Below, piece after piece: positions 3,045 to 63,716 of a stretch of 64,000 bases of DNA. Source of the DNA: a virus (Duplodnaviria; Caudoviricetes); IMG/VR virus record IMGVR_UViG_3300021400_000134; one strand, written 5' to 3'. The notes beneath the pieces were generated by a model, which was given only the letters and a program-made list of their open reading frames with translations, was not told where the DNA came from and ran no database searches. Every line of letters starts with the position of its first letter. Within the stretch, counting starts at the first letter, position 1. The position numbers and the translations under genes were made by a program.

Positions 3045-3641
3045 ATGGGAACTCAGTTCACAGATATATATAATCGCTTTCTTGGTAAAATCACAGATGA
3101 TATGTACATGGAATTAACTCCAGAAGACACAATGAGGGACTTAAGGTCCCTTTTAATTGATGCAATTCCAGGGTTTGAATTTCCTCGTAAGATACTAGAT
3201 GATTTTTCTATCGAAACTTTAGTTGTTAGAGAAGATGCGGTAGAAGAAGGGGATTTTGTTATTGGAGTTGTTTGAAATACTCCTGACGAAGAAGAGGATG
3301 ATGGAATTCCAGACGTATATATTGAACGCTCGCATTTTAATGTAGATTTAACGAGTGAAGAGATTAATATTCTTGCTTTACTAATGATGTGCGGTTGGCT
3401 TCAACGCCAAGTCACATCTATTGAAAATACTCGCATGAAATACAGCGGGTCAGATTTTAAATTTACCTCCCAAGCCAATCATCTTGCCAAACTATTAAAT
3501 TTATTGTCAGAATGCCAGAGACAATCATTCCATATGCAGCGTCTTTATAAGCGCAGACGCATCAACAGTGATGGATATATTGAATCCAACTGGGATGTTT
3601 TGAGAAATGGAATCTTTGGTGACTACGAAGTTAGGCATTAA
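3045..3641 (+). CDS. Putative head-tail adaptor (198 aa, code 4)
   Basis: Track ORFs 3045-3275 and 3384-3641 share a frame and are separated only by TGA; function from synteny. Confidence 0.65.
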
Positions 3642-51313: not shown

Positions 51314-53683
51314 ATGGCGTTAAGAGTTTGGCTACCGCTCAATGGTAGTCTTGAAAATAAAGGGGTTAGTGATTATGAAATTAGAAGTGCTAATATCACT
51401 ATAGCAGATGATGGGAAAATAGGAAAATGCTATAGCTTTAATGGAAGTAATTCTTATATTAATATCACTAATTTTGAAATAGGAAATAATTGGTCATATG
51501 GATGTTGAATTAATACTCCAAATTCTGATTCTAGAGGTTGAGAAATTGTTATGATATTAAATAATTCTGGGTCAGATGCAGATTCTCAATTTGCTTTTTG
51601 AGTTCATCAAAAAGAGAATCGTTTTGAAAGTTTGGCAAATACTCAATATGTATCTACCATTCCCTATACCAATTATTATAATAATTGACATCATTTTTTT
51701 GCAACTTTTAATGGCGCTTTATTAACAACTTATATTGATGGAAATGTAGTTAATACAAAAACTATTACAGCAACGCAATATAATGCCGTGAACTTAACAA
51801 TTGGTGCACGAAGTACAAATGCAACAGGAACAGCTTTTGCAAATTGATTTCAAGGAAAATTAAATGATATTCGTGTTTATGACCATTGTCTTTCCGCAAA
51901 GGAAGTAAAAGAAATTTCACAAGGTTTAGTTTTGCATTATAAATTAGATAATCCTTCTATTACAAATTATTTTGAAACAGGAAATCTTATTCCAAATTAT
52001 AGGGAAATGAATTTAGGTTCGGCCAATGTTTCTACAGGAACTTGGCGTTTAGCTGGGACAAGTAATATGACTAGAGCAAGAATTCAAATTACAGATTCTC
52101 CAATTGGAACATGTTATTGTTTTCAAAACTCTGGTATACAAACAGCTAATGATGGTTCATGTTATGGAATAGATAGTACAACTTATTTTGAACCAAATAC
52201 TGAATATAGAATTTCAATGTTTGCAAGAATAACATCTGGAACAGAAGGATATGCAGGTTATAATATTTATAATATTTCTTCAGAACTAGGTGGTTCTCAT
52301 ACGAAAATTGATAAAAATTATAGAGTAACTTCTTTAAATTCAGATGGTTCTTGAACTTATTGTTGATATCATTTTAAAACAAATTCAACGGCTACTAGAA
52401 ATATTTATATTGGTATTACCACTGGAGAGACTTCTGTAACTACACAAATGTGTTTAATTAGAATTGATAAATGAAATGATGGAATGGATACTACTAAAAT
52501 TGTTGATTCTTCTGGTTATGGGAATGATGGAAGTGTAATTGGAAATACTTTAATTCAAAGAAATTTCTCTAGATATAATACATCTATTTATATGAACAAT
52601 ACAGGTACAACAAATCATATTGAATATAATGCTTTAAATATTAGTGGCGCATTTACAATTAGTTTTTGAGTAAAGGCAGCATTGTCAAAAAATCAAGTAA
52701 TTTTTATTGATAATGGACATGGTTATGAATTTGGTATTTTAAATAATTTATTTTATACATCAACAACGACAAATAAGGGATGAGCAACGTCAAAATTTTT
52801 AACAAATAATTGAAATCATATTGTTATAAGATCCTCTGATGGAACGACAGCAGAATTATTTATTAACGGAATTCAAGAAACTTCAAGAACGGGTGCGAAT
52901 AATAATTATTTACATAATAAAACCAATCCTTGATTATTAAATAGAGGTAATAATAGTAGCTATGCAGCTGATGCTAGTTTATCTGATTTCCGTATTTATG
53001 CAACTGCCCTTTCTGCAGAAGATATATTAGATTTATATCATACTCCAGCAAATATAGATAATTTACAAAATATGCATACTTTTGAATTTCGAGAAAATAG
53101 TGAAAAAACTTCAATATATCAAAATGGTATTACATCTACAACAAATGAAATACATGAATCAAATGCAGAATTATTAAATACCATGAGTATTGGAGGTTAT
53201 ACTCCAGCAAAAAATATAGCAAATTCTTGCACTAATTTTGGATATGCAAATTTTGATAATTATGCTTCTTTGGGCAAAGATTTAGCAGTGCATATAGAAT
53301 GTGATGTTGAATGGACCGCATTTACAGCAGATACCGGAGGAACTTTTAGAGGAGTTTGGTTTCAAGGAGCAAATTATGAAATTGCTTCAAGTTCTTTTAA
53401 ATGAGCTGGTACGAATTATATATGTAGTGCTTTAAATTCAGCCTTTTCATTACAAACCATATCTACAATAACAACAGCTGGAAAACACCATTATAATATT
53501 ACGACAACAATTCCTGCTAGTTGATTTGCAACATATAGTAGATCTAATTTAGGTTGAAGATGTGATTATTCTGATGGAACAGGTCATATTGATATAAAAA
53601 ATTTAAAAATAACTCCATTGCAATACTACAATGCTAAAATTGGTGAAGATTTTATTTCAGCAAATAATTTTATAGAAAAATAA
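51314..53683 (+). CDS. LamG/ConA-like lectin-domain adhesin (789 aa, code 4)
   Basis: Two LamG-like units (WHHFFATFNG..YIDG..GKLNDIRVYDHCLSAKEV; WNHIVI..LFING..LSDFRIYATALSAEDI) plus CBM-like inserts. Confidence 0.8.
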
Positions 53684-53695
53684 GGAGGTGCCAGG

Positions 53696-54319
53696 ATGGC
53701 GCAATTAAATACATATACGGTATATTGTCATACCAATTTAATAAATGGAAAAAAATATGTTGGTATAACAAAAAATGTGCCAGAAATCCGTTGAGGATAT
53801 AATGGCATCAACTATAAAGGTTGTACTTTATTTTGAAAAGCGATAGAGAAATATGGTTGAAATAATTTTTCACATGATATTTTAGAAACTGGCTTATCAG
53901 AAAAAGAAGCTATAGAAAAAGAACGATATTATATAAAATTATGAGACACAATGAAAACTAATGGATATAATTTGACTTCTGGCGGAGAAATTAATAAAGA
54001 AATTGACGAAGAATATAGACAGCGTTTAAGAGATTCTCATTTAGGTATAAAGTATTCTGAAACTACAAGAAAGAACATGTCTAAAGCAAAAATGGGTCAT
54101 CCTGGTTATAATTGTAAACCTGTTTGAATGTGTGATAAAATAACACATGAAAAAATTAAATATTTTAAAAATTCTATTGAAGCAGAAAAATTTTTAAATA
54201 AAGGCAACACGCGTGCTCATATTGGGCACGTATGCCAAGGAAAAAGACCTTCCGCTTATGGATATTACTGAATGTTTGCGGATAAGGCAGAAGGAGGTGT
54301 TGACCTATCGCACAATTAA
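53696..54319 (+). mobile_element. Free-standing GIY-YIG homing endonuclease with NUMOD-like C-terminus (207 aa, code 4), absent from ORF track
   Basis: YTVYCHTNLINGKKYVGIT, RW, AIEKYGWNNF, EKERYYI, GYNLTSGG and C-terminal CQGKRPSAYGYYW; all 6 Trp are TGA. Confidence 0.9.
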
Positions 54320-55107
54320 AAGATAGCTTAATTACTGGTGATTTGCGAGTCACTGGTACGATATATGGAGACGCCAATTTGAGTTCACTTAATGCGAGCG
54401 GAACTGGATTGGGGTCTAATGGACAAGTTTTAAAATCAACAGGAACTGGATTGGCTTGATTGACATTGGGAAGCTTGGCTTCTAAAAGTACAATTTCTAA
54501 TCATTCTGTCACAATACCAACAGGAGAGACTAGTAGAACAGCGGATGTTGCAGTAAATACAACAACGGTTAACTCAATTACTGGTGTTGGTACATTGCCA
54601 AGTTTAACTGTTACGGCAACTGATGTAGTAACAGGCGGTACTACTACTGCTATTCCAAATATTTCAAAGAAAACTGTTGTAACGGGTGTTACTAAAAAGA
54701 CAGTTGTAACTGGAGGATCTACAACAGCAGTTCCTAACATTTCAAAGAAAACTGTTGTAACATCAGCAACTGCAGCAAAAGCTACCTATAGTTCTGGAGT
54801 ATTGACAATTTCCGATGGAAGTGTGACGACCGGTGATTCAGTAACAGTAGGAACTGCAATTAATGCTTATACAAGTTTAACAACTGGAGATAGTGTTACT
54901 GTAACAACTGGTGATTCAGTAACAGTTGGTACAGCTATTAATGCTTATACTGCTTTAACTACTTCAAGCATCGGTTCCGCTAGTAATTGAAGTGCTGGTA
55001 CATTACCAACTAAAGGTTCTAATACAACTGTTGCTACTGGAATTAAAACACAGCCTACATTTACAGTTACAACGCAAACAACAACATTAACACATACAAT
55101 AAGTTAA
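54307..55107 (+). CDS. Thr-rich needle-type fibre protein (266 aa, code 4), apparent ATC start
   Basis: SD AGGAGGTG 7 nt before ATC-GCA-CAA-TTA-AAA-GAT (xAQLKDSLITGDLRVTGTIYG); in frame with track ORF 54460; ends at TAA 55105-55107. Confidence 0.65.
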
Positions 55108-55119
55108 GGAGGTAATTAA

Positions 55120-56577
55120 ATGGCAAATGGTTTAATAGGAAAAATAACTGCCGGAGGTGGTACACATTTAATTGCCTCGACAGCTTACTTTACGTGTGCA
55201 ACGGCTAAGGCTACTGCGGCAAAAGTGGCAGCTGCTGCAGATACAAATTTAGATAATATAACTTTAATGACAGGCTTAACTATTTATGTAAAATTTACAA
55301 ATCATAATGAAGTAGCAAATCCAACATTGGCTTTATATAAATCAGATGGTACGACTAATTTAGTTGCTGCTAAACCTATTATGAGATATGGAACAACAAC
55401 AGCTTATCAAAGTGCTGCTGGTTCTTGGCGCGATGGGGCAGTAGTAGCTTTTACTTATGATGGAACTAATTGAGTTGAGCACTCGAGTATTGATGATAAT
55501 AGTAATGATACAGGATATTATGTTAGACATATCTATACAAATATTAAAGCTGGTTCTGTTGGTATTTTCCCTTATACAATAATTATGCAAAGAAATGACG
55601 GACGTTGAGATTCTATTGTAACAAGTAGTTCTACTGGTACGTCAAAAGCGTGTAATACAAATGGATTCGTATTAGGTCAAGTCATGCTAATGTATGCGAA
55701 TAAAACTTATGCCGCAGATGCTAATGTTGATACATATAATGTATGACAAATGCATAGCGGACTAGTTGATCATAGATATAGTTTTAATACCGCTAATAAT
55801 GCAACAAGTGGTACTGCCGCTAGAAAACCTATATATTTAGTTGGGACTGTTACTAATGGATTATTCTATTTAGATACAACTAAATGATGAGCTACTGCTT
55901 TACCGACAAGTGCTGATGGGAAAGTCTATATTTATATAGGAGAATCTTATGATTATTATAGACTTACGTTTACTGGGTATCATCCAATATATCATTATAC
56001 AAATGGAGCTTTAAGACTATACGGGGGAGACGCCTCAACGGTTAATGGACAAGTATTAGGTACATTAGCAACTAAATCCAGCATTGCTAATCATTCATAT
56101 ACGCCAGCTGGAAGTGTCTCCGTTTCTACTAATGCGACAACCAATAAAACAGCTACGGTTAGCCCAGCGTCTTCTGGAACGGCTACATATACACCAGCTG
56201 GAACAATTGCTGTAAATACTGCAGGTTCTACTGTTGCTGCAGATGATATTACCGCATGAACAACTAATACGCCAACAGCGGTTACTAAAAAAACTGTTGT
56301 AACTGGTACGAGCGCAACTACAATTAGCGTATCTTCTGAAGTTTTAACAATACCTGCTTCCGTTATAACGTCTGCAACTACTGGTGATAGCGTTAGTGTA
56401 ACAGCAGGTACAGCTGCATCATTATCATACACTGCACGTACAGTTAAATCTGGAGATGCCAGTTATAAATTTACTGGTACTGGTGTGCGTTTGGTTACTG
56501 GTAATATTGCGGTTCCTAATACATATACCGCATCATTTACCGGCACAGCAGCAACATTGACTCATACAGTTTCATAA
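55120..56577 (+). CDS. Tail fibre protein with needle-type C-terminus (485 aa, code 4)
   Basis: YFTCATAKATAAKV and SWRDGAVVAFTYDGTNW fibre motifs; tandem TGA-TGA at 55885-55890; C-terminal domain homologous to the previous gene. Confidence 0.75.
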
Positions 56578-58858: not shown

Positions 58859-59515
58859 ATGGCAGCGGTTAAACAAATTAAAATTGGAAACACAAATTAT
58901 GATTTAAAAGCTCTCAATGCTGCTAATCAAAACCAAAGTGGTGCAGTAGTAAGAGATATACAATATGGCACTGCAGCTCCAACAGGCGGTTCTGCGGGAC
59001 AGATGTATTTACAATATGTTAATACAGATACTGAAAATTTATATTTATACGCAGAAGATACCGCTGCAGATACTACAGGAGTGGCTGATAAATATTACAG
59101 TAAAAGTGAAGTTGATGCTATGATTGCTAATCTTACTAATAAAACAACCTGACATAACTATGCTTGAGGAGGCAATACATCTTCAGGTCAAACTGTAACT
59201 ATTACATGTTCTGGTCCTGGCTTTATTATAATTTCAGCTTTTATTAGAGCTAATAATAGTACAGATAACTATGGTCTTTTAGCTACCTCTATATCTAAAT
59301 CAGATAATAATGGTTCTTCTTGGAACGAAATTTCTAGAGAAGAACATAGAAAACATGGATCAGGTTATTCTATAGCTCCTGCTGCTTTTGCTTCAACAGG
59401 AACTTCTACTTCAAGTGCTACAAGATTTAAAATTGAATTTAATAGGTCTTATGAGGGAACTCATTATTGAAGAATAGAGGTTCTTTCTGTTGGATGTACT
59501 GTAACTAAATTATAA
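58859..59515 (+). CDS. Receptor-binding candidate, conserved N-terminus and variable head (218 aa, code 4)
   Basis: MAAVKQIKIGNTNYDLKALNAA; reads through TGA to TAA 59513-59515. Confidence 0.75.
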
Positions 59516-59529
59516 GAGGATAATCGATT

Positions 59530-59946
59530 ATGGCACAAAACAAGTATATTAAGCAAAATGGTGAAGTAATATACCCTATTACGAAAACTGAAAATGTATT
59601 AAATAAAGCTGGATTGGATTGTTTTGGTTGATGTAATGGCATAATGTGATGTTACGCAACTAGAAGTTCTACCAGTACGGTAGATTGAACTTTAAATGCA
59701 AATTTTGGTTCTAATGGAATAAAGATTAATACTTTAAAGATGGATGGAACTGTGCAAAGGGTTACTTTTACGTCATCTTTAGCTTCAACAAACTATGGGG
59801 TTTGAGTTTCAGCAGAAGTTGGTGGAACAGCCAGCGAAATTCTTGGCGTATATGGTAGAACTACAAGTGGTTTTGCCATCGATTGTGCGAATTATAATGG
59901 AGCTGCAACTCAACCAGTCCAAATAAGTATTTTAATTATATATTAA
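59530..59946 (+). CDS. Small fibre-tip/lectin-like protein (138 aa, code 4), absent from ORF track
   Basis: MAQNKYIKQNGEVIYP...VTFTSSLASTNYGVWVS...RTTSGF; 4 TGA. Confidence 0.7.
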
Positions 59947-61086: not shown

Positions 61087-61743
61087 ATGGCAGCTGTAAA
61101 ACAGATTAAGATAGGTAATACAAACTACGATTTAAAAGCATTGAATGCGGCTAATCAAAATCAATCAAATGCTGTTGTAAGAGATGTCCAGTATGGAACA
61201 GCTACTCCTACTGGCGGAAGTGCTGGTCAAATATATTTACAATATACTAATACAGATACCACCAATCCCTATGTTTATGCTGAGGATACTCCTGGAACTG
61301 AAGTTAATGTCAGTGATAAATATTACAGTAAAACTGAGGTTGATAATAAATTTGCTTGAAAAAAATTTGGTTCACATAGTGGAGCAGATAATTGAGATAT
61401 AACTTCTTGTTGAAACCAATGTCAAGAATTATATATTGTTGTTAGTAAATACTTTAGAGGTTCTAACACTTCAGCGAATGAAGTCATAGAATTACAATGT
61501 CACGTATTAAAACAGCAGGTTGAAGAAGATTGGACTAGTTCATACAATACTGGAAAAATTGTATTTATTCCAGCTGGAAATAGATATAATAATAATCAAG
61601 GAAATAGCAGTATTTGAAATGCCCTTTTTAGATTACATAATGGTAATGGTAATGTTTATCTTCAGTTAAACGAATTATTTTGTGTATCACTCGCTTCAAC
61701 AAATCAGAATGGCTCAGGGTATTATATATTATATTGAAGGTAA
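61087..61743 (+). CDS. Receptor-binding candidate (218 aa, code 4), paralog of 58859
   Basis: First ~88 aa highly similar to 58859; the C-terminal part is unrelated by eye. Confidence 0.75.
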
Positions 61744-62434: not shown

Positions 62435-62815
62435 ATGATGAATTATTCAGGATACCCTGCTCCAACGTATCCAACTTATGGAGCAATGGGTCAACAACAA
62501 CTTTATACCCAGAGACAAGAAGTGGTTAGGGTCAATGGGCGAAATGGTGCAAATGCTTATCAAATGGCGCCAAATAGTAGTATACTACTTTTAGATGAGA
62601 CTGCACCAATTATTTGGTTAAAAACAACAGACGGAGCATCATATCCAACAGTAACTGGATATACGATTACTCCAATTGAAACTCAAGCAACAACTACGGC
62701 GAGTGTAGATTATTCAGCTTTAGAAGAAAGAATATCAAAATTAGAAGAGGCATTCAATGCAAGGAAATCCGATGCTTCAGATTCTAAACCAATCAAGACC
62801 ATTAATAAACAATAA
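62435..62815 (+). CDS. Hypothetical protein with Tyr/Pro/Gln-rich N-terminus (126 aa)
   Basis: Intact ORF with SD; short C-terminal coiled coil (LEERISKLEE). Confidence 0.75.
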   Translation: MMNYSGYPAPTYPTYGAMGQQQLYTQRQEVVRVNGRNGANAYQMAPNSSILLLDETAPIIWLKTTDGASYPTVTGYTITPIETQATTTASVDYSALEERISKLEEAFNARKSDASDSKPIKTINKQ

Positions 62816-62996
62816 TATGGTCTCAATGATAAAAAACTCGCCTAATCCTCAAGTTTTGCTAAATAATTTATTGGCGCAAAATCCTAAAGTATCTGGATTA
62901 ATAAATCAATATGGCGGTGATGCAAGAACCGCTTTTTATGCGCTTGCGCAACAAAAGGGGGTAGACCCTAATTCAATATTAGACATGTTAAAATAA
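62757..62996 (+). CDS. Gln/Asn/Met-rich hypothetical protein (79 aa)
   Basis: SD gagg; overlaps the upstream gene; NPMLQ...AQQKGVDP. Confidence 0.7.
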   Translation: MQGNPMLQILNQSRPLINNNMVSMIKNSPNPQVLLNNLLAQNPKVSGLINQYGGDARTAFYALAQQKGVDPNSILDMLK

Positions 62997-63050: not shown

Positions 63051-63716
63051 ATGGAAAATGGAAGTTTATCAGCTAGTGATGTTGCTTTACTCAGTGATCG
63101 CAATGGTTATGGTGACATGTGGGGCGGCAATTCCATGATGTGGATTTTTGCTTTATTGATTCTTGCTGGTGGCGGCTTTAATGGTTGGGGTAACAACGGC
63201 TTCGCTAACGCAATCGGTTATGAAAACTTGGCAACACAATCACAAGTAGATCGTGGTTTTGATACCCAGAATATGATGGCAAATCAAAGAGAAACTCTTG
63301 CTGCTGTCAATGCTGGAACCGCACAAGCAGTAGCCGCAACTAATCAGACATTCCATGACACAGTTAATGCTTTAAGTGATAAATATAGTGAACTTGCTAG
63401 AGATATCAGTGGCTTAGCTGTTGGTCAGGCTAATTTGTTAGCAAAAGAAAATGAATGTTGCTGCCAGACACTTCGCGCAATTGATGGTGTAAATTATGCG
63501 AATGCTTTAAATACAGCTGCAATTAATGAAAACACAACTGCGCAGACTCAGAAAATCCTAGATGCTATTACTGGTAATCGTATGGCTGACATGCAAAATC
63601 AAATTAACCAATTACAGCTTCAGCAAGCTGTTGCTGGTGTAGTTCGCTACCCAAGTGCTAGCACTTATTACGCAGGAACAAATCCGTTCTGCGCTTGCGG
63701 TGGAGCAACACTTTAA
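63051..63716 (+). CDS. Hypothetical protein: hydrophobic helix, Gly-rich segment, CCC motif, coiled coil (221 aa)
   Basis: MMWIFALLILAGGGFNGWG, ENECCCQT, MQNQINQLQLQQ and C-terminal FCACGG. Confidence 0.8.
   Translation: MENGSLSASDVALLSDRNGYGDMWGGNSMMWIFALLILAGGGFNGWGNNGFANAIGYENLATQSQVDRGFDTQNMMANQRETLAAVNAGTAQAVAATNQTFHDTVNALSDKYSELARDISGLAVGQANLLAKENECCCQTLRAIDGVNYANALNTAAINENTTAQTQKILDAITGNRMADMQNQINQLQLQQAVAGVVRYPSASTYYAGTNPFCACGGATL

Follow-up and report, generated by a model that had tools for sequence, protein, structure and literature searches.

How can a virion gene still be expressed when a mobile endonuclease has taken over its ribosome-binding site, its ATG and its first codons? 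The question is raised by a locus in IMG/VR virus record IMGVR_UViG_3300021400_000134, a 64,000-nucleotide (nt) stretch of DNA from a tailed phage (Duplodnaviria; Caudoviricetes) referred to here as the window, in which a gene for a putative GIY-YIG homing endonuclease lies between a LamG-type gene and a tail-fibre-like structural gene that appears to begin with ATC. We consider it very likely that an intron-less endonuclease cassette has entered the first codons of the fibre gene and carries with it a replacement AUC/AUU initiation site. An earlier sequence-only reading of the locus had proposed that the insertion is intron-less and that the fibre start was regenerated as ATC, and both proposals are borne out by the insert-free alleles and by the conservation of ATC or ATT in related lineages described below.

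The window was read with TGA as tryptophan (translation table 4), since table 11 yields only scattered short open reading frames (ORFs). Reading TGA as tryptophan gives long structural genes, all on one strand (the plus strand, on which all the features below lie), and thus identifies the window as the late region of a TGA-recoded phage. The first of two copies of a start region, AGGAGGTG-ccagg-ATG GCG CAA TTA AAT (53683-53710), opens the endonuclease ORF of 207 amino acids (aa) at 53696..54319. It overlaps the native Shine-Dalgarno (SD) sequence of the fibre locus, AAGGAGGTG (53682..53690), which is placed 5 nt before the ATG at 53696 and is now used by the endonuclease, and it includes the stretch ATG GCG CAA TTA AA (53696..53709), which encodes the start of the endonuclease N-terminus MAQLN and matches exactly the 14 nt with which the fibre gene begins in three alleles that lack the insert. 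The second copy, AGGAGGTG-ttgacct-ATC GCA CAA TTA AAA GAT (54292-54324), forms the 3' end of the endonuclease ORF, where a replacement SD, AGGAGGTG (54292..54299), stands 7 nt before the ATC (54307..54309) that is the putative start codon of the displaced fibre gene. The latter occupies 54307..55107 (266 codons plus a stop in code 4, xAQLKDSLITGDLRVTG...), and its codons 4 and 5 (TTA AAA) provide the TAA stop of the endonuclease (54317-54319).

As the sequence-only reading had described, the SD and about five codons are duplicated 611 nt apart in different frames, the fibre being in the -1 frame relative to the endonuclease, and the fibre frame contains a TAA at 54283 with no ATG, GTG or TTG between it and the ATC. 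The first canonical in-frame codon is a TTG at codon 13 (54343..54345), which is the start used by gene callers and has no SD. The composite pattern SD-spacer-ATS-GCR-CAATTAAA occurs twice in the window and not once in 100 shuffles, and the ATC at 54307 is the sole SD-led start in the window other than ATG, and the only orphan start there that combines an SD with ATY (ATC or ATT).

The locus is seen in its empty state in three assemblies without the insert (L001-L003), in which the LamG-type gene is followed directly by AAGGAGGTGccaggATG GCG CAA TTA AAA GAT. Their junction, SD-ccagg-ATG GCG CAA TTA AAA GAT, encodes a protein that begins MAQLKDSL... and is exactly the join that had been predicted from the two copies in the window and that endonuclease-free relatives had been expected to carry. 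The 266-aa protein of these empty alleles (P0001, MAQLKDSL...) matched the window fibre at 100% in a protein search, and blastn aligned the window with L001 at 100% identity over 38 nt leading up to the insert (53672-53709, containing the native SD) and at 99.56% over 1805 nt to its right. The insert itself, as defined by these blastn blocks and by an alignment of the window with L001 and a second occupied allele (L004), is 611 nt long (53710..54320) and is missing from the empty alleles; its limits are ambiguous over 8 nt, with CAATTAAA present at both ends (53702-53709 and 54313-54320). One further true empty allele (L124) was recovered by scanning IMG/VR with the DNA pattern ATNGCNCARTTAAAAGA, almost all the other matches being chance internal ones; a peptide-pattern scan of IMG/VR returned no fibre relatives, and the INPHARED phage records gave no DNA match. 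In the protein database, a 254-aa form of the fibre (P0002, called from the TTG) is accompanied by the endonuclease in every case, and the 266-aa form that starts with ATG is confined to sequences that lack it.

An assembly error at 54309, which would have undone the proposal, is ruled out by the occupied allele L004, which comes from an unrelated run, is ~2.4% diverged with 24 single-nucleotide differences in the endonuclease, and retains ATC GCA CAA TTA AAA; the rest of the family, where ATC or ATT is found in nine of the 11 lineages checked at the DNA level, shows the same codon. The C at 54309 and the A at 54312 are two of just eight differences from L001 across the 1805 nt, and the placement of two of the eight mismatches within the first 6 nt (P ~3e-4) indicates that the SD-ATC-GCA segment belongs to the insert and did not arise afterwards by point mutation within the fibre gene.

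The inserted gene, delimited by its ORF in code 4, by Pfam and PHROG matches and by a family alignment, scores 25.3 bits against the GIY-YIG family PF01541 (cutoff 22.6; residues 7-87) and matches phrog_314, 'homing endonuclease', with an E value of 2.6e-34. Residues Y10, Y21, G23, R32, E76 and N92 are invariant in an alignment of 20 family members, and presumably correspond to the catalytic residues of I-TevI. With these core residues and a precise presence/absence pattern, the product is predicted to be a GIY-YIG homing endonuclease of the free-standing, intron-less kind. A Pfam scan found no Hint/intein domain at the locus, where endonuclease and fibre are read in different frames; a PDB sequence search with the endonuclease profile gave no match, and the relatives in IMG/VR are distant only (at most 49% identity). 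Closer relatives, of ~200 aa and 54-99% identity, form ~24 clusters, and they share an unusually conserved C-terminal tail, ...G-x-D-D-L-S-H-N*, which is explained by its being the translation of the SD, the spacer and ATC GCA CAA TTA A.

These endonucleases follow the genetic codes of the phages that carry them. In the clade that reads TGA as tryptophan (TGA=W), the endonucleases encode tryptophan as TGA at six of six positions in the window, seven of seven in L291 and four of five in L008; in the clade that reads TAG as glutamine (TAG=Q), tryptophan is always TGG, and one to four glutamine codons are TAG. A single family has thus been recoded in two different ways. Among the Agate-type recoded phages, TGA-recoded, TAG-recoded and standard-code relatives are close to one another and one endonuclease prefers TGA for tryptophan (10.1101/2021.08.26.457843), a background that fits that of the window. 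A search of the 64-kb window for tRNA and tmRNA genes detected none, despite its heavy use of TGA for tryptophan, so any suppressor tRNA would be encoded elsewhere in the genome; nor did the window supply a candidate for a phage-encoded initiator-like tRNA that reads AUC.

The same layout is shared by ten further endonuclease lineages (54-74% identity) whose DNA contexts we compared, drawn from phages with TGA=W and from phages with TAG=Q. The start is regenerated as ATC in L006/7, L008, L009/10, L210, L211, L212, L294 and L296-299, as it is in the window and L004; it is ATT in L005 and L295, and ATG in L290/291 (ATG GCA ATG CTT AAA) and L292/293 (ATG GCG ACA CTT AAA). All occupied lineages have an SD-like GGAGG or GAGGTG ~7-8 nt before this codon, the fibre continues after it with AQLKD, AMLKD or ATLKD, and the endonuclease ends either at a TAA formed from fibre codons 4-5 or, in two lineages with truncated tails, at a TGA one codon before the ATC. 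In these latter lineages (L006/L007 at 3570-3600 and L212 at 2570-2595) a 1-nt frame change has cut the endonuclease tail short, so that its TGA is in frame with the fibre and only a CTT separates it from the ATC; the old tail (GRDDLSLS*) is still legible in another frame.

Because the tail translates the start region, its residues report the start codon (L-S for ATC, L-L for ATT, and Y-G or N-G for ATG), and two such protein-based assignments were confirmed against DNA. By this means, 17 informative protein clusters could be scored, 12 with ATC, three with ATT and two with ATG. On the tree of the endonucleases, each of the two deep clades includes ATC, and ATG and ATT are scattered tips, so that the ATC start appears most simply to be ancestral and long-lived; the ATY layout has been kept while the endonuclease diverged by about 45%.

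Is this codon the start of the fibre? In five lineages (L006, L009, L210, L212 and L294) the fibre frame is closed by a stop two codons ahead of the ATC, a single CTT intervening, and a canonical start is reached only 9 to 183 codons further on, in ORFs that are 218 to 989 codons long. The motif AQLKD..G..R.T..Y is conserved in all lineages, and across fibre codons 2-17 the window and L291 differ by nine synonymous codon changes and one nonsynonymous change, a pattern that shows, at the level of codon comparison, purifying selection on the protein encoded immediately after ATY. The lineages with truncated endonuclease tails (L006/7 and L212) nonetheless keep ATC GCN CAR/TAG YTA AAA, so the string must be conserved for the fibre and not for the endonuclease, and the sister lineages that carry ATG at the identical position show it to be the site of the start. 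In the window, ATG opens every other SD-led gene, which shows that the ATC start is not a genome-wide habit and led us to reject general use of non-ATG starts by the phage as an explanation. Taken together, the SD spacing, the lack of a canonical start and the selection downstream are those expected of a near-cognate (AUY) initiation site, and from them we infer that AUC or AUU is decoded as the fibre initiator.

The same comparisons bear on the idea that the fibre in occupied genomes is truncated at its N-terminus, starting at the TTG at 54343, or is a decaying pseudogene that is dispensable given the paralogous fibres nearby. Gene callers do select this TTG, producing the 254-aa P0002, and the window holds many fibre-like genes. 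This is nevertheless very unlikely: the TTG is without an SD, and probably not the real start; codons 2-12, upstream of it, are conserved as protein across lineages with synonymous substitutions; sister lineages without a canonical start for 59-183 codons keep their 218-989-codon ORFs open; the occupied fibre gene is 99.56% identical to the ATG-bearing allele with no disabling change; and the layout has persisted through about 45% divergence of the endonuclease. The sequence-only reading, which had named a TTG start or a pseudogene as grounds for abandoning the proposal, thus survives on both counts, given the selection on the N-terminal codons and the distance to the next start. The designation 'tail fibre' derives from gene context and from the matches of some relatives to PF03406 (Phage_fiber_2) or gp36; the window fibre itself matches no Pfam or PHROG family.

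A different way to express the fibre would be to remove the insert from the RNA, as a group I, group II or novel intron, or to bypass it in the manner of T4 gene 60, so that translation begins at the ATG at 53696 and yields MAQLKDSL. The direct repeats that flank the insert and the restoration of the ancestral ORF by its exact removal would suit such a scheme, as would the frequency with which phage GIY-YIG endonucleases are intron-encoded, judging from the family names of the database matches. A permissive Rfam scan of 53000-55200, however, detected no intron family down to E=10, and a ribozyme core could not be accommodated, since the whole insert is taken up by the endonuclease ORF, much as the sequence-only reading had pointed out. 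For every junction placement that the 8-nt repeat allows, the last base of the insert is A or T, and for those further left it is C or A, but never G; the locus therefore does not resemble a group I intron, which has a conserved core (P3-P9), a 5' exon ending in U and a G at its own end. RNA structure at the junction is neither significant nor conserved (z from -0.9 to +0.6, with one value of -2.0), and no SD-sequestering hairpin common to the lineages was seen in the junction RNA folds.

For bypass there are further difficulties, in that the endonuclease N-terminus of L009 and L210 (MEKIY) offers no fibre-like take-off codons, take-off and landing do not match in L006, whose 5' copy reads CAA at a position that is TAG in the 3' copy, and the 611-nt gap is translated as the endonuclease, with no stop after the 5' copy. 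The T4 gene 60 gap is 50 nt, and 611 nt is far larger. The features of programmed bypass of the gene 60 type thus seem to be absent. Neither splicing nor bypass, moreover, would explain why a correctly spaced SD, fibre codons 2-5 and an ATY in frame with them are conserved across 11 lineages. We therefore regard removal or bypass of the insert as highly improbable, in keeping with the lower rank that the earlier reading gave to it.

Frameshifting could in principle connect the fibre to an upstream start, either by a -1 shift out of the endonuclease to give a fusion protein, or by a +1 shift after initiation at an out-of-frame ATG (GATGAC) that lies 7 nt before ATY in most lineages, or at the TTG that takes its place in the window. 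In L006 and L212 the endonuclease and the fibre are in one frame with only TGA CTT between them. There is, however, no slippery heptamer ahead of the endonuclease stop, and the relative frame of the two genes varies by lineage so that no single shift would work. The ATG at -7 is 0-1 nt from the SD core, which is too close to initiate, and L005 has AGG at this position; we take this ATG to be part of an extended SD (GGAGGTGAT-like), as judged from the 3' end of 16S rRNA. A 200-aa nuclease fused to the N-terminus of a fibre is also implausible, and frameshifting of either type is extremely improbable.

With initiation at the regenerated codon preferred, expression of the locus may be pictured as follows. 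The endonuclease would use the strong SD and the ATG that originally served the fibre, hence its MAQL- start, and the last ~30 nt of its ORF would supply a second strong SD, the near-cognate ATC and replacement fibre codons 2-5, such that the fibre would be made as a separate full-length protein. Initiation would occur at AUC with initiator tRNA, guided by the SD 7 nt upstream, to give the N-terminal peptide AQLKDSLITGDLR, with or without Met. Reinitiation by ribosomes that have just left the endonuclease stop, 10 nt downstream of the ATC, may help. The endonuclease stop is always four codons or fewer from ATY in the lineages compared, and reinitiation within about 7 codons of a stop has been discussed for T4 endonucleases (PMC2988022); with the stop in this range, coupling may add to SD-driven initiation.

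Several points weigh against this interpretation. AUC and AUU initiate with an N-terminal Met at about 1-2% of the level of AUG in E. coli (10.1101/063800), and if initiation had the E. coli efficiency, which may not be that of the host of this phage, the AUC start would be 50-100-fold weaker, which is surprising for a virion protein. Two lineages have reverted to ATG, and ATC may therefore be costly. The evidence comes throughout from metagenome assemblies, the fibre N-terminus and its expression being deduced from sequence, and TGA is taken for a stop codon in the TAG=Q lineages on the strength of codon usage and gene ends.

The capture of fibre codons by the endonuclease is likewise not universal. 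In the TGA=W clade the endonuclease N-termini (MAQLN, MAQLR and MAQLK) are the fibre's own, and from these sequences capture of four to five fibre codons is clear in this clade only; in the TAG=Q clade the N-termini are MAQY, MANY, MEKIY or MSQNY. The proposal that the endonuclease captured the start of the fibre gene therefore holds for the TGA=W clade and is not evident in those TAG=Q lineages in which the endonuclease begins MEKIY..., unrelated to the fibre. Since endonucleases of the L009 type begin in this way, the element could originally have inserted between genes and recombined later; the fibre codons may have been captured by an ancestor and since eroded, or their capture may be secondary.

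Why, then, does ATY persist? One proposal, which we hold only tentatively, is that it confers immunity to self-cleavage: a G in the start codon would help to rebuild the recognition or cleavage site of the endonuclease beside the intact right half of its target, so that occupied genomes must carry ATC or ATT, or altered codons 3-4, to escape their own enzyme. The full empty-site string ATG GCN CAR TTA AAA GA is present in L001-3 and L124 and in none of the occupied alleles of the 11 lineages, and both ATG lineages have changed codons 3-4 (ATG CTT and ACA CTT). CTT is found in two of two ATG lineages and none of the nine ATY lineages (Fisher P ~0.02, a post hoc comparison with no phylogenetic correction). 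A precedent may exist in T4, where the insert associated with mobA and gene 60 reportedly protects against cleavage.

The regenerated site already differs from the empty one, however, in the sequence and length of its spacer (ccagg versus ttgacct), which might suffice for protection, and the third base of the start (C in 12, T in three and G in two) is about as variable as the neighbouring four-fold site of GCN (mostly A, with T, C and G minorities), which would fit near-neutral drift from an ancestral C. A near-neutral ancestral C that rides with the driving cassette is thus a candidate explanation for the persistence of ATY, and tuning to low fibre expression is another. Removal by ATC of an I-TevI-like CNNNG cleavage motif was also considered and was rejected after inspection by eye, being inconsistent across lineages. 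It is accordingly doubtful, though conceivable, that the AUC/AUU start is functional as the price of immunity to self-cleavage, with expression rescued by the very strong SD and reinitiation. If self-immunity were the explanation, the locus would represent a new route, free of introns and inteins, by which a selfish element can enter a coding region, and would offer a natural example of selection acting on AUC initiation.

The endonuclease also coincides with a discontinuity in the relationship between these genomes. The segment nearly identical to L001 (54307..56111; 99.56% by blastn and the mismatch list) is ~98% identical to L004 and spans the fibre gene and the first two-thirds of the next gene (55120-56577), and both flanks outside it are only ~80% alike or cannot be aligned. 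Its right boundary, at about 56111, is the same against L001 and L004 and falls inside a gene, which points to a recombination module whose left edge is the endonuclease. Phage nucleases have been reported at mosaic boundaries (PMC10448857), and the window endonuclease resembles them in its position. By marking a recombination boundary in receptor-binding modules, the endonuclease bears on the evolution of host range in the recoded phages of the gut and rumen.

Other features of the window concern the genes around this locus. Upstream, the LamG gene (51314..53683) encodes a 789-aa receptor-binding-type protein in code 4 with a Laminin_G_3 domain (PF13385, E 2.7e-35), and its TAA stop (53681-53683) runs into the first SD; the order LamG gene, endonuclease and fibre is also present in L004, L006 and L294. 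Within the fibre gene, 54625-54963 contains direct repeats of ~60 nt (off-diagonal blastn matches of ~82% identity; ...ISKKTVVTG... and ...TGDSVTVGTAINAYTSLT...). Paralogous fibre-module genes at 58859-59515 and 61087-61743, and those at 59530 and about 61746, have near-identical N-termini (MAAVKQIKIGNTNYDLKALNAANQNQS... and MAQ..Y.K.NGE.IYP) and then diverge, which suggests that a receptor-binding cassette has been duplicated. Fibre-type genes in the window mostly begin MA. The last three listed ORFs (62435-62815, 62757-62996 and 63051-63716) have no in-frame TGA, unlike the upstream fibre genes, and may mark a change of module or of expression class.

There are practical consequences for annotation. 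In public gene calls, 'gaps' of 450-1250 nt follow the endonucleases (3612-4860 in L005, 3591-4234 in L006, 1285-1738 in L009 and 1222-1831 in L296), and these arise because the ATC or ATT start of the fibre is not recognized by gene callers; the fibres are consequently mis-annotated, with N-terminal truncations of 12 to about 400 or more residues. Natural, conserved AUC/AUU starts on essential-looking virion genes, found in a family of at least 11 lineages that spans two genetic codes and includes ATG revertants, also provide a comparative series for near-cognate initiation, SD compensation and termination-reinitiation.

The closest known systems are the free-standing endonucleases of T4-like phages. 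Like the seg and mob genes (SegF, SegG and MobE), which are of GIY-YIG or HNH type, the window cassette is an endonuclease gene with no intron or intein and a precise presence/absence pattern; those genes are likewise often promoter-less cassettes that rely on host-gene signals, with overlapping ORFs, and the expression signals of downstream genes lie inside the endonuclease ORFs, as at segG/gene 32 (PMC2988022). The window differs in that the insert lies inside the target ORF after codon ~5, taking the SD, ATG and first codons, and brings a replacement SD, an ATC/ATT start and duplicate codons 2-5. Endonucleases within a coding sequence whose function is kept without splicing are known from mobE in Aeh1 nrdA, mobA between T4 genes 60 and 39 and a seg gene in gene 43 of phage 25 (PMC2988022), and the window shares these properties. 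Those split genes, however, give two polypeptides that reassemble, whereas here ~5 codons have been displaced and duplicated and the fibre is left whole.

The T4 mobA/gene 60 cassette is an endonuclease-linked coding insertion tolerated by an unusual translation event and has been proposed to protect against the endonuclease, and the likeness to the window lies in that combination. The gene 60 gap, however, is a 50-nt non-coding segment hopped between matched GGA codons, and here it is a full ORF of 611 nt; take-off and landing codons are not conserved in the window family, for which the evidence favours initiation. A conserved AUU or AUC start behind an SD recalls the AUU starts of E. coli infC and pcnB, at which initiation with Met is inefficient and sensitive to IF3 (10.1101/063800); those genes are cellular and autoregulatory, whereas the fibre is a phage structural gene linked to a mobile endonuclease, with a start that is mainly AUC.

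The HNH insert in the methylase gene of phage ShiLan is similar in being neither an intron nor an intein and in having an endonuclease ORF that ends at the edge of the insert, but ribosomes translate it in frame as an additional domain of the host protein, with the endonuclease out of frame and using a GTG start (PMC11855218). In the window, by contrast, the host gene restarts downstream of the insert. A full-text search of the literature found no account of such a layout or of a conserved ATC/ATT start linked to an endonuclease, and on this evidence the arrangement is a variant of intron-less homing not described before, one that carries a putative natural AUC/AUU initiation site. Homing endonucleases have been thought to persist within genes only by means of an intron or intein, and otherwise between genes; the locus described here presents a third solution, in which the element enters the first codons of a gene, seizes the initiation site of its host gene and carries a spare one.

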